Shown: positions 39,792-45,279 of the stretch, in pieces
Layout: each line of letters opens with the position of its first letter
How positions within the stretch are numbered: the stretch's first letter is position 1
Assembly (NCBI GenBank): GCA_038208115.1
Contig: JBBQZC010000004.1
Coordinates: forward strand, 10,530 to 74,529
Length of the DNA: 64,000 nt
DNA from: Candidatus Moraniibacteriota bacterium
GTDB taxonomy: Bacteria; Patescibacteriota; Minisyncoccia; Moranbacterales; GCA-2747515
Direction: 5' to 3'
Program-made: the position numbers and the translations under genes
Notes under the pieces: model-generated
Told to the model about the DNA's origin: nothing
The model's input: only the letters and a program-made list of their open reading frames with translations
The model's database searches: none

Positions 39792-42700
39792 TTATGCTAT
39801 CAGTGATGTGTTTTTACGTTCAAGTTTACCCCATCCGACGAATATGCCTTTGATTGCGACAAATACGGTTTTCATTGCAACATAATACATCAATTGACGA
39901 TAAAAAAATCGTTGAAAAATAATCCAAATGAGTAAAGACCAGTCTTCACGTTCTCGTTCAAGTGTAAATGCAATGATCGATGAAAAAATGTCAATCATCA
40001 AAAACAATATGTAATATACAAATATATAGCGAAATGTGTACATAAGAGAATAATCCATCTGATGTATATGCTGTTGCCACAGTGCCCAGCTCACTGAAAT
40101 GATCAACGCAAGATCAACAATTGGTGCAATAATCTGAAAAAATAATTGAAATACAAAAATGTTTGGCAAAGCAAAAAATCCCAATGCACCATATCGTGGA
40201 CGGAAAAAAACCGCTTTATGTTTCCATGCTGTTTGCAGTGTGCCATACATCCATCGAAACCGCTGTTTGACGAAGCCAGCAATGGTATCAGGCGCTTCCG
40301 TATATGCAATCGCTTCATCATCATACACAACTTTATATCCATTTTTGATGATTGAAAATGTAAGATCAGCATCTTCTGCTAAAGTATCACTCGAAAACCC
40401 TCCTACAGACACAACCACCTCTCGACGCCATGCGCCAACCGCACCAGGCACAACTGAAATCGCATTGATAATATCGACAGCACGTCTCTCTAAATTTTGA
40501 CTTGTGATGTATTCCAATGCTTGTAATTTTGTTAATATATTTACTTTATTTCCCACTTTGGTATTTCCCGCGACCGCGCCCACACGTGAGTCAGCTAAAT
40601 CACGAATGAGCATTTTAATTGTATCTTTTGTAAAAAGTGTATCCGCATCGAGCGCTACAAAAAATTCAGAAGATGATTGTGTAATCCCAAAATTCAATGC
40701 GCTTGCTTTTCCTCCATTCTCTTTGGTGAATATACTCACTTTATCATTTGCACAATATTTGTGATTAAGTAAATAATATGTATTGTCAGTAGAACCATCA
40801 TCAACAATAATAATGCGAAAATTTCCATAATCTGAGTCAAGGAGAGAGTCTATGGTTCGTATTATCACATCCTCTTCATTCCATGCAGGAACGATTACAT
40901 CAACAGATGGTTCAAATTCCGTTTGATATACACATGTCTTGCCATAACGACATCTGCCAGATTGTATAAGTGCTAGAACTATGATGAATAGTAGTCTCCC
41001 TATCCCCAAAAATATGCCAACTGTAAAAATGAAATAAAAAATATTCATTAAAATATATGTCAACGAGAATGTTATATCGTTGATTCGCATAGCCAATTGA
41101 TCTTGTGAAACAACAGGTGGCATAATTGTATCGTGTGACACACCGACTAATTCTGAAATTGTCACAAACTCATAGCCTTTTTGTTTGAGTGTATCAATAA
41201 TTATTGGAAGTGCATCCACAGTTTGATCGCGATTTCCTCCAGAGTCATGTAATAACACAATATTACCCTCTCCACTTTCAGCTCCATTTACAACATTCGA
41301 CACAATTTCTTCAGTACCGGGTTGTGCCCAATCCGTCGGATCTATATGCATACCGACCGTATAATATCCTTGATTATTCGCAAATAGTAATGATCCAATC
41401 TGTTCTAAAGTTTCAGGCTCGACATCTTCTGCATATGGCGGTCGAAACAAAATTGTTTGTCTTCCGATCATTCCTTCCAACATTTTTTGAAATCCATTGA
41501 GTTCAAGAAAAAATTGTTTTTTGGAAATATTATTAATATTTGGATGTGTAAATGTATGGCTACCAATCTCATGCCCTTCCGCATTGATCCGCTTTATAAT
41601 ACGAGGGTATTTATCCGCACTCAATCCGATTGTAAAAAAAGTTGCATGAATATTCTTTTGGTTTAAGATATCTAAAATCAGATCAGTATATTTTGCATCA
41701 GGACCATCGTCAAAAGTAAGTGCTATTTTTTTACTGTCCTCACCACCAAATCTCTCAATTCTATACGATGACGGATATTTCACAATTGACGCATCCGTGA
41801 TAACTCCATTGACATCATCGTATATCACATTTCGCACACCATCTATCGGCGTATGTTTGATTTTAAGCACTTCTCCCACACCATCATAAGTTACCACATC
41901 CCCATGAGGAATTACTGTGATCATATCAGCAACAAATTTGTCGAGATGATCTCGATACGCCATCACATGCCACAAAGAAGAGTCTTCTCCACCCATGCGC
42001 CACAACGCATATCCCAGAGGTCGATATTGTCTCACTGCAGCGATTTGATCAAAAACAGTCACCGCATCTAAAAACCACACATGGTGGATAATATTTTTTT
42101 CATCGCGATACGAAAATGTTTCGTTTTGACTTTGATGATCCATTTGCAAAGTTACACGTGCATCTATAGCAGTCATTAGTGCCTCTTGTGTAGTGATGCT
42201 CATTCCGTTCATAGTATCTTCTATCCAATCATAACCGTAGTTACCATACGCGATCACGATTTTTTGTGGTGGAACTTGTGAGAATCGTTGTGTAATACCC
42301 GCGACAAACCAATCGCGTGATGCGATTGGTCCAGAAGCAGTAGCCTGAACCGTATGCTCATCATACGCCATCAAAACCAAAAAATCGACATATTGGGCCA
42401 ATATGCGTGCATCAAATGAATCATCAATTAGCGGTATGCTTTGAGAAACTTCCAGTCCTTCCTGTGAAAAAACTGCATATAGCTCTTTCATATATAAAAT
42501 AAGATTTGCTTGACTCGTATCTGGGATAGATTCATAATCGATGTTTACACCATCAAACCCATTTGTCTTTACGTAATCCAAAATACTTTGAATATTATGA
42601 CTCCGCGCAGTCTGATCTTGAAGCATATTTACCACCATTTCACTATCCCAATTTTGCGTGGTTGAATTGTAATTATTGATAAGTGGCGCAATTTTGAGTG

Positions 42701-43172
42701 GACTTCCATTACTGCGTATAAAATCCAATGCTTTTTTTTGTGCTTCTTCATCGTCAAGTATTATCGATCCATCTGCTCCTGATAAATGTAACCACTCAGG
42801 CATCAATTCATCGATCGATCGAATATTATTTTGCAAAGAGTTAAAACTCTCATCATCCCAATTTACATAAAATGCGATTGATTGCGAACGATACGTTCCA
42901 ATAGAATCCACAGATTGTATAGGTGTCTTTTGTGATCCAATCTGTACATCTGATGCAACCTGGATTGGCGTCACATTTGAATTTTCTGATATTGGTTGCA
43001 ATTTCTGTGGCAAAACAATCGGTGGTTCCCCCAGTAATTGTGTCTCATGGTAAACAGTTTTCACTGTAAAGCCAAAAAAACCGACTACTATAAGAATAAT
43101 TATTATAGTCGGCCACTTAACCCACAACCATCTTTTCTTAGTTGCATCATAAAATATCGGTGTTTGCGTCAT
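39792..43172 (-). CDS. tri-domain exopolysaccharide enzyme: GH18-like domain + CE4 (NodB) polysaccharide deacetylase + processive GT2 synthase (PgaB/PgaC- or IcaA/IcaB-like fusion)
   Basis: N-terminal TM, then 'FDGVNIDYES' (GH18 DxDxE-like). 'IALTFDDGPDAKYT...HEIGSHTFTHP' is the CE4 domain. 'DVIVPAWNEEDVI...IIVDDGSTDNT', 'LDADT' and 'QRFRWMYG' (QxxRW) mark the GT2 domain, which is followed by C-terminal TM helices. Confidence 0.7.
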   Translation of the reverse strand: MTQTPIFYDATKKRWLWVKWPTIIIILIVVGFFGFTVKTVYHETQLLGEPPIVLPQKLQPISENSNVTPIQVASDVQIGSQKTPIQSVDSIGTYRSQSIAFYVNWDDESFNSLQNNIRSIDELMPEWLHLSGADGSIILDDEEAQKKALDFIRSNGSPLKIAPLINNYNSTTQNWDSEMVVNMLQDQTARSHNIQSILDYVKTNGFDGVNIDYESIPDTSQANLILYMKELYAVFSQEGLEVSQSIPLIDDSFDARILAQYVDFLVLMAYDEHTVQATASGPIASRDWFVAGITQRFSQVPPQKIVIAYGNYGYDWIEDTMNGMSITTQEALMTAIDARVTLQMDHQSQNETFSYRDEKNIIHHVWFLDAVTVFDQIAAVRQYRPLGYALWRMGGEDSSLWHVMAYRDHLDKFVADMITVIPHGDVVTYDGVGEVLKIKHTPIDGVRNVIYDDVNGVITDASIVKYPSSYRIERFGGEDSKKIALTFDDGPDAKYTDLILDILNQKNIHATFFTIGLSADKYPRIIKRINAEGHEIGSHTFTHPNINNISKKQFFLELNGFQKMLEGMIGRQTILFRPPYAEDVEPETLEQIGSLLFANNQGYYTVGMHIDPTDWAQPGTEEIVSNVVNGAESGEGNIVLLHDSGGNRDQTVDALPIIIDTLKQKGYEFVTISELVGVSHDTIMPPVVSQDQLAMRINDITFSLTYILMNIFYFIFTVGIFLGIGRLLFIIVLALIQSGRCRYGKTCVYQTEFEPSVDVIVPAWNEEDVIIRTIDSLLDSDYGNFRIIIVDDGSTDNTYYLLNHKYCANDKVSIFTKENGGKASALNFGITQSSSEFFVALDADTLFTKDTIKMLIRDLADSRVGAVAGNTKVGNKVNILTKLQALEYITSQNLERRAVDIINAISVVPGAVGAWRREVVVSVGGFSSDTLAEDADLTFSIIKNGYKVVYDDEAIAYTEAPDTIAGFVKQRFRWMYGTLQTAWKHKAVFFRPRYGALGFFALPNIFVFQLFFQIIAPIVDLALIISVSWALWQQHIHQMDYSLMYTFRYIFVYYILFLMIDIFSSIIAFTLEREREDWSLLIWIIFQRFFYRQLMYYVAMKTVFVAIKGIFVGWGKLERKNTSLIA

Positions 43173-43339: not shown

Positions 43340-44215
43340 TTAGGCATTTTTCCAACATACACCAGACGTTGTCACAGTTTTTTTCCACGGTCCATCAGGT
43401 ACATCTTTTGCATCGACAAATCGCCAATCGACAACATCGACATCTTCCAGTTTCAAATAATCATTGACAGCTGGAGAGAGATCGAGTCCTGCGTGATCAT
43501 TGGTTTTACTTTTTGGTTTTGCGGTACCAAAAACATATCCTGAATCATCTTCACCAAAAGGTCCAACATCCTCCCACTGCGCATAAGCCACTTCATCATC
43601 ATGCACTATCTGAATCCATCTGTTTTTACATATAGATTCTTCTTTTTTTAATGAAACTTCTTTTGCCCATGGCACTATTTTTTTTACCTCACCTTTTAAA
43701 TTACCCTCATCATTTAAATCATTATATGGAAGCGCAAAATAAAATGAATTTTCATCTGGCACAAAAGAGGATGGCACATATCCATTTCGCTTTTTAGGAT
43801 TATCCACACCACCAAAATGATCAACCCAACTCTCATCCCATGCACTCGGCAAATTGGAAATATGTTTATTATCATCACCCGCCTTTTCACCAATCCAAAA
43901 AAGTGTTGTTGTAACATTTTGATGCAAGATGTACTGCGTATTCGATTCGTTAGGCATCACATCATTTGTGATGTCATTTTGTTGTGATAATTTTTCTACT
44001 ATTGAATCCACCAAAGATTTTTGCTCATCATTTTGCTTTTGTACTGGACTTATTTGTATAGGATTATTCATATCAATGTATGCCAAAATGGATTCTGACT
44101 CATTTTGAACAGTGTCAATAATCTTCTTTCGACTACTTGCATACATTGCCAAAAAAAACCCACTTGCAATGATCAAAAAGATGAAAAAATAAACAAAAAA
44201 TTTCTTTATTGTCAT
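43340..44215 (-). CDS. secreted protein with RlpA-like double-psi beta-barrel (DPBB) signature, paralog 1
   Basis: N-terminal TM. 'TLFWIGE...' then 'CKNRWIQIVHDDEVAYAQWEDVGPF...AGLDLSPAVNDYL' resembles RlpA 'VxVTN...VVVRINDRGPF...GRIIDLSxAA'. Confidence 0.4.
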   Translation of the reverse strand: MTIKKFFVYFFIFLIIASGFFLAMYASSRKKIIDTVQNESESILAYIDMNNPIQISPVQKQNDEQKSLVDSIVEKLSQQNDITNDVMPNESNTQYILHQNVTTTLFWIGEKAGDDNKHISNLPSAWDESWVDHFGGVDNPKKRNGYVPSSFVPDENSFYFALPYNDLNDEGNLKGEVKKIVPWAKEVSLKKEESICKNRWIQIVHDDEVAYAQWEDVGPFGEDDSGYVFGTAKPKSKTNDHAGLDLSPAVNDYLKLEDVDVVDWRFVDAKDVPDGPWKKTVTTSGVCWKNA

Positions 44216-44364
44216 AAGATTATGTCATTAGTACTAATATATACGCATGCACAGCAAAAGACCTTTCACACGATCATCAATTTGTTATTACATTTATATA
44301 GATTTCATTTTCTGCCAAAACAGGATAAAAATGTTATATTGATAACAATTTTCTAAAAATTAGC

Positions 44365-45108
44365 TCATTTTTTCCAAAACACCCCAGATGTCGTTATAAT
44401 GTCTTTCCATGGTCCCTTTGGCACATCACGCGCATCGATAAATTGCCACTCCACAGTATCCAAGCCATTCAACGCCAAATAATCATTAACAGCTGGCGAC
44501 AAATCCAATCCTGCACTGTCATTTGTATTACTATGCGGCTGTTTATCACCAAACACATATCCTGAATCATTTTCACTGAACGGCCCGACGTCTTCCCACT
44601 GTGCATAAGCTATTTTGTCACCGTGTATGATCTTGATCCACATATTTTTGCATAGTGATTCCGTCTTTACCGGCGAACGATTTTTTGCCCATGGCACAAG
44701 TGTTTGCACGTCATTTTTTTGCACACCATTTTTATCAAGGTCATTATATGGAAGTGCAAAGTAAAACGGATTTTCGTGTGGCATAAAATTTGCAGGGAAA
44801 TATCCATTGCGTTTTTTAGGATCATCTACACCGCCAAAATGATCAACCCAACTTTCATCCCATGCACTTGATACATTAGAAATTTGCTTATTGCTTTCAT
44901 TTGCATTCTCACCAATCCAAAATAGCGTTGCTGTAATGTTCTTATGTACGGGATATTGTATAACACCTTTGTCTGCATTATTTACAAATCCTGATTTCGT
45001 TTGATTTGAGCCGTTTTTACTAAATCCTCGCGTCATTACAAACAGCAAAAAAACACATGCAACAATTAGACTTATGCTAGCTATAATAAGAATTGCTTGT
45101 TTTATCAT
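44365..45108 (-). CDS. secreted protein with RlpA-like DPBB signature, paralog 2
   Basis: Collinear with 43340-44215: 'CKNMWIKIIHGDKIAYAQWEDVGPF...AGLDLSPAVNDYL'. Lacks the ~60-aa N-terminal linker of paralog 1. Confidence 0.4.
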   Translation of the reverse strand: MIKQAILIIASISLIVACVFLLFVMTRGFSKNGSNQTKSGFVNNADKGVIQYPVHKNITATLFWIGENANESNKQISNVSSAWDESWVDHFGGVDDPKKRNGYFPANFMPHENPFYFALPYNDLDKNGVQKNDVQTLVPWAKNRSPVKTESLCKNMWIKIIHGDKIAYAQWEDVGPFSENDSGYVFGDKQPHSNTNDSAGLDLSPAVNDYLALNGLDTVEWQFIDARDVPKGPWKDIITTSGVFWKK

Positions 45109-45227: not shown

Positions 45228-45266
45228 TTAAAAAAATGAACCCTCAAATACTGCTGTATTTGAGGG
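45228..45266 (-). terminator. Rho-independent terminator downstream of dapA
   Basis: ccctcaaatactgctgtatttgaggg hairpin (45241-45266), followed on the minus strand by T7. Confidence 0.55.
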
Positions 45267-45279
45267 TGCTCCATTTGTA

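Follow-up and report, generated by a model that had tools for sequence, protein, structure and literature searches.

Two tandem, putatively membrane-tethered double-psi β-barrel proteins of an undescribed family lie upstream of a GH18-like/CE4/GT2 polysaccharide synthase in a Moraniibacteriota genome

Nearly all synthase-dependent exopolysaccharide systems include a glycanase of their own, and anti-biofilm reagents come mainly from these enzymes. Among the other accessory proteins, PgaA is an outer-membrane β-barrel porin with TPRs and PgaD is a small inner-membrane activator with two transmembrane (TM) segments. In double-psi β-barrel (DPBB) proteins, an Asp on the fifth core strand is the catalytic acid of GH45, RlpA, and MltA; expansin D1, cerato-platanin, loosenin, kiwellin, and SPI keep the equivalent Asp and do not hydrolyze. 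CE4-GT2 fusions have been reported in pga-like loci without pgaA and pgaD (PMC7112194).

The window, a 64,000-nt stretch of DNA from a Candidatus Moraniibacteriota bacterium, carries two adjacent DPBB genes on the minus strand. The distal paralogue (44365..45108) encodes 247 aa, composed of an N-terminal hydrophobic anchor (residues 6-24, nt 45037-45093) and a DPBB-type conserved domain (residues ~52-247, nt 44368-44955). The proximal paralogue (43340..44215) encodes 291 aa, with the anchor at residues 6-24 (nt 44144-44200) and the same domain at residues ~94-291 (nt 43343-43936). Each protein has a single hydrophobic segment, and the linker between it and the ~196-aa (~200-aa) domain is short in the distal protein (~25 aa) and long in the proximal one (~70 aa, rich in Q/N/S/D/E). 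Pairwise BLASTP alignment revealed 133/196 identities (68%) with 0 gaps (E 3e-104), well above chance similarity, and a family HMM run across the window recovers only these two copies. The tandem paralogy proposed in a preliminary description of this DNA thus holds at both open reading frames, as do the motifs it quoted from both proteins: ATLFWIGE or TTLFWIGE, CKNxWIxIxHxDxxAYAQWEDVGPF, and AGLDLSPAVNDYL.

The proximal copy retains 49 of the 50 family positions conserved at ≥90%, deviating solely by a P-to-S change at the equivalent of position 114. In a neighbor-joining tree, the two copies of the window are sisters, and second copies from five other Patescibacteria genomes group apart from them in an older clade. 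Recent gene conversion or an assembly artefact was considered for the pair and rejected, given the 68% identity, the unequal linkers, and the conserved positions intact in both genes. The DPBB genes are 149 bp apart, and the proximal gene ends 167 bp upstream of the synthase ORF. A pattern search found no terminator-like site between the DPBB genes or ahead of the synthase; by pattern match only, it placed a terminator-like hairpin with a 12-bp stem and a T-run directly 3′ of dapA (45240..45267, minus strand), which is the probable upstream limit of a DPBB-DPBB-synthase transcription unit.

Both proteins are best read as outward-facing and membrane-tethered. Of their description as secreted, the outward orientation stands and free secretion does not: the N-terminal hydrophobic segment fits a membrane-anchored protein or lipoprotein better. 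Such a segment is present in 146 of 177 family members, 17 of which carry lipobox-like motifs. The domain is acidic, with a median pI of 4.75, a net charge of -10, and 9 Trp per 200 aa, a composition in keeping with the negative charge found in the clefts of enzymes acting on cationic GalN/GlcN polymers (PMC12054363).

The two proteins belong to a large, previously undescribed family, recorded in neither Pfam, NCBIfam, nor the PDB, and the searchable literature contained no characterized member and no enzymology for any. A word-indexed search returned 824 homologues at E≤1e-3 and an exhaustive search at least 1205 clusters at 50% identity, so both paralogues are real genes. The family ranges over Patescibacteria, Campylobacterota, Bacteroidota, Desulfobacterota, and archaea, with 45-65% identity among members from different bacterial phyla and archaea and 50 of 200 positions conserved at ≥90%. 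Twenty-seven of these 50 positions fall in two family-specific loops; the corresponding loops of GH45 and GH75 form the substrate cleft (PMC9485262). Archaeal members, at 50-57% identity, lie on Methanoperedens, Methanosarcinales, Iainarchaeum, Pacearchaeota, and Thaumarchaeota contigs whose other genes include archaeal ones, an RFC-like clamp loader among them. Searches of phage and plasmid collections recovered no member and so gave no evidence of a mobile-element vehicle for the wide spread of the family.

Structure prediction from a 132-sequence family alignment, which superseded a moderate earlier model from 33 close homologues (pLDDT 75.6), followed by structure comparison, recovered a six-stranded barrel with two interlocked psi loops. 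The fold claim of the preliminary description therefore survives on the predicted model, in which the domain is a heavily decorated DPBB of ~200 residues representing a new family. Membership in the RlpA/DPBB_1 or expansin sequence families is not borne out, and half of the domain is family-specific. The window proteins do not match Pfam DPBB_1 (PF03330) at E≤1, and across the 132 members a Pfam search at E≤10 yielded only sub-threshold DPBB_1 matches in two (best E 0.012). Neither DPBB protein has a meaningful match in Pfam or NCBIfam or, in one single-sequence and two profile searches, among PDB sequences. The D1 (DPBB) plus D2 (CBM63) architecture of EXLX1 is missing, as are sequence membership in GH45 endoglucanases (PF02015) and their Y-W-D base motif on strand 1. 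Neither the window proteins nor the 132 members match GH75 (PF07335) in Pfam; hhalign of the 132-sequence profile against a bacterial GH75 profile of 43 sequences is not significant (probability 0.8%), and hhalign of a single sequence to a Calothrix GH75 returned no match.

Three acidic residues stand out, all encoded on the minus strand and numbered here in the distal protein. D202 (44503..44505; D245 in the proximal protein, 43481-43483), in the motif AGLD-LSP, is 98% conserved in 132 diverse members and lies on a strand predicted at residues 201-203, with a helix after it as in EXLX1. It is thus a conserved Asp on the fifth core strand, in the series of motifs HFD, IDLS, and LDLS, and answers the preliminary proposal to look for a conserved catalytic Asp. 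Alignment by hhalign, at low significance in both cases, places it on EXLX1 D82 and on the I-S/D-LS position of RlpA, making D202 a candidate catalytic acid and a candidate equivalent of the GH45 acid. D173 (44590..44592; proximal D216, 43568-43570), in QWED-VGPF, is 100% conserved across the 132 members and would be the motif equivalent of RlpA NDRGP, EXLX1 D71, and the GH75 FADxGP Asp (V-Csn D148). The role of V-Csn D148 and a mechanistic framework for GH45/GH75-type catalysis are described in PMC9485262. Locally, hhalign matches the family to GH75 best where KIAYAQWEDVGP pairs with KLVYAIFADxGP, a match that is not significant alone.

E67 (44908..44910; proximal E110, 43886-43888), in FWIGE, is 99% conserved and directly follows strand 1, predicted at residues 55-62. 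By analogy with GH45 D10 and V-Csn D36 it may be the general base, although a simple motif comparison sets it about two residues off the GH45/GH75 base position. At the motif level only, E67, D173, and D202 are acids at positions comparable to the GH75 base, FADxGP Asp, and acid, respectively. The residue-equivalence alignments are of low significance (E 0.009-0.07); those to EXLX1 D82, RlpA IDLS, and GH75 FADxGP are weak and mutually consistent.

The partner synthase (39792..43172, minus strand) is a single polypeptide of 1126 aa. Pfam, NCBIfam, and hydrophobic segments define, from the N terminus, a TM segment, a GH18-like domain, a CE4 domain (Polysacc_deac_1), one or more TM segments, a processive GT2, and C-terminal TM segments. 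The GT2 resembles PgaC/IcaA, NodC, and chitin synthases and scores 191 bits against the NCBIfam PgaC/IcaA model, whose cutoff is 422. More than 100 full-length homologues share 47-89% identity with the synthase; a metagenome scan with the same query returned only two distant GT2 fragments.

Among the best 80 of at least 565 genome loci of the family, the fusion synthase is adjacent in 20, which correspond to 20 of the ~24 Patescibacteria loci, and other neighbors are not conserved. Four further Patescibacteria-type synthase loci, selected independently of the DPBB gene, carry that gene directly upstream in three cases. Placement in relatives, on which the preliminary description had staked its proposal, is therefore not random. 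At least 29 of the best 120 synthase homologues lie on contigs that also bear the family. Domain fusions add to this picture: GH114 is joined to the family domain in 20 of the best 80 loci, in either domain order, CE4/DUF2334 in three members (L064, P0130, and P0239), and an esterase and a 3-keto-disaccharide hydrolase also occur as catalytic partners. Of the 80 loci, 28 have a CE4 gene no more than 3 kb away, and a CE4 deacetylase is adjacent (within 3 kb) or fused in 6 of 10 archaeal loci; one locus (L074) presents the gene string GT2, CE4, DPBB.

Beside three cyanobacterial synthase orthologues, a GH75 chitosanase gene sits upstream on the same strand, and a fourth ortholog is fused to GH75; GH75 and the DPBB family of the window were never found together. 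This association points to a chitosan-like β-1,4 product of the GH18-CE4-GT2 synthase rather than PNAG. In about 30 of the best 80 loci no polysaccharide genes were seen nearby, and since one of these is the complete genome of Marinitoga, the linkage is not universal. Across lineages, linkage to the synthase and modifying enzymes is nevertheless conserved, as would be expected of an accessory glycan-processing protein of a synthase-dependent exopolysaccharide system. Adjacency, domain fusion, and GH75 replacement are three independent linkages that tie the family to deacetylated amino-sugar polymers.

Because the family is repeatedly linked or fused to amino-sugar polymer enzymes, the proteins most likely bind and cut the product of the synthase. 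We assign a probability of about 0.5 to the reading in which the outward-facing DPBB module binds, and probably cleaves, a partially de-N-acetylated hexosamine exopolysaccharide, with the substrate, the catalysis, and the catalytic residues all putative. The GH18-like/CE4/GT2 protein would extend a chitin- or PNAG-like polymer of N-acetyl-hexosamine through the membrane, and its external CE4 domain would deacetylate this polymer. At the membrane surface, the DPBB proteins, on two linker lengths, would grip the emerging chain in an acidic, Trp-rich cleft. Endolytic cutting by GH45/GH75-type acid/base catalysis appears the most probable next step, in which D202 would donate the proton and E67 or D173 would serve as the base or bind the amine; chain length would thereby be controlled, the chain released, and jamming prevented. 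In other synthase systems this task falls to BcsZ, PgaB-GH153, PelA, Sph3, or Ega3, and apparently to GH75 beside the cyanobacterial synthase orthologues.

The main competitor, less probable, is a non-catalytic glycan-binding or loosening module, akin to expansin D1, cerato-platanin, or a CBM, that grips the deacetylated polymer. In Patescibacteria it would retain or organize the polymer on the cell surface, with the two tether lengths giving two layers; when fused to GH114 or CE4, it would bring the catalytic partner to that partner's substrate. Many of the closest structural neighbors are indeed non-hydrolytic DPBB proteins, the domain is joined to bona fide catalytic GH114 and CE4 domains in either order, as a CBM would be, and an anchor, a long flexible linker, and a globular head make a typical surface tether, whose acidic, Trp-rich surface suits polycation binding. 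With GH114 in the fusions and a GH18-like domain in the synthase itself, a second glycanase is not obviously needed, which fits a binding module at least equally well. Against it stand a conservation unusually high for such a module (45-65% identity over phyla and archaea, 50/200 positions at ≥90%), acids kept at all three GH45/GH75 catalytic positions, and GH75, a true enzyme with the same fold, substituting beside orthologous synthases. A point against the binding-and-cleavage reading is that one strict linkage specificity cannot cover all contexts, since GH114 acts on α-1,4-GalN polymers and GH75 on β-1,4-GlcN.

Two further explanations leave the exopolysaccharide untouched. As a protein-binding DPBB, for instance a protease or enzyme inhibitor of the SPI or kiwellin type or a structural subunit, the protein could dock on the external GH18/CE4 domains of the synthase and regulate them. 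This is very improbable: the family also stands alone, with no synthase or CE4 nearby, and its fusion partners are unrelated catalytic domains (GH114, esterase, and 3-keto-disaccharide hydrolase), occurrences better explained by a common substrate than by a common protein partner. A peptidoglycan lytic transglycosylase of the RlpA/MltA type, opening the wall locally for the synthase product, is about as improbable; we rejected it as the leading interpretation, since the family has archaeal members and its fusion partners belong to exopolysaccharide rather than wall metabolism. The archaeal proteins, at 50-57% identity and beside CE4 genes, occur in lineages not known to make murein; the family also escapes Pfam DPBB_1, and the window proteins lack SPOR, LysM, or any other peptidoglycan-binding domain.

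Extending the binding-and-cleavage reading, we tentatively propose, at less than even odds, a new DPBB-fold glycoside-hydrolase (or lytic) family specific for partially de-N-acetylated hexosamine polymers and spread horizontally over a dozen or more bacterial phyla and several lineages of archaea. It would be the dedicated chain-release or trimming enzyme of a one-polypeptide chitosan- or dPNAG-like synthase, which may produce the surface coat, or the matrix for attachment, in episymbiotic Patescibacteria. Two copies, one on a short and one on a long tether, would then reach the chain at different heights above the membrane, the reason we infer for the tandem pair. If catalytic, the domain would found a new CAZy family and add to the tools for work on chitosan, PNAG, or Pel matrices; if non-catalytic, it would be a new module recognizing polycationic glycans. 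Either way, the family offers a testable handle on the product of the GH18-CE4-GT2 "all-in-one" synthase, which is very common in Patescibacteria and cyanobacteria.

Compared with known systems, a replacement of PgaA/PgaD, suggested in the preliminary description, is rejected on architecture: each protein is a single N-terminal hydrophobic segment with a soluble 200-aa DPBB domain, and Pfam and NCBIfam revealed no porin, TPR, or PgaD-like features. The BcsZ-type accessory role suggested alongside it, binding or cutting glycan, is retained as an analogy. GH75 chitosanases (soil-virus V-Csn, PDB 7TVL; PF07335) show no detectable sequence relationship to the family; their loops differ, and their acid is the Glu of GEGS rather than the candidate Asp of LDLSP. 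Relative to the RlpA-like DPBB (PF03330; PA4485, RlpA) and MltA, the domain is twice larger (~200 aa), has three conserved insertions, occurs in archaea, and is linked to exopolysaccharide rather than cell-wall or division genes. Unlike expansins (EXLX1/YoaJ), loosenins, and cerato-platanins, the family lacks D2/CBM63 and is membrane-anchored rather than freely secreted; a further conserved acid, placed on strand 1 or just past it, is missing in expansins, whose context is the plant cell wall instead of hexosamine polymers. The accessory glycanases BcsZ (GH8), PgaB (C-terminal GH153), PelA (GH166), Sph3 (GH135), and Ega3 (GH114) are, like the family, encoded beside or fused with a synthase and a deacetylase, and both act outside the membrane on a polymer deacetylated after synthesis, at least putatively for the family; they adopt (β/α)8 or (α/α)6 folds, whereas the family is a predicted DPBB whose function is read from its context.

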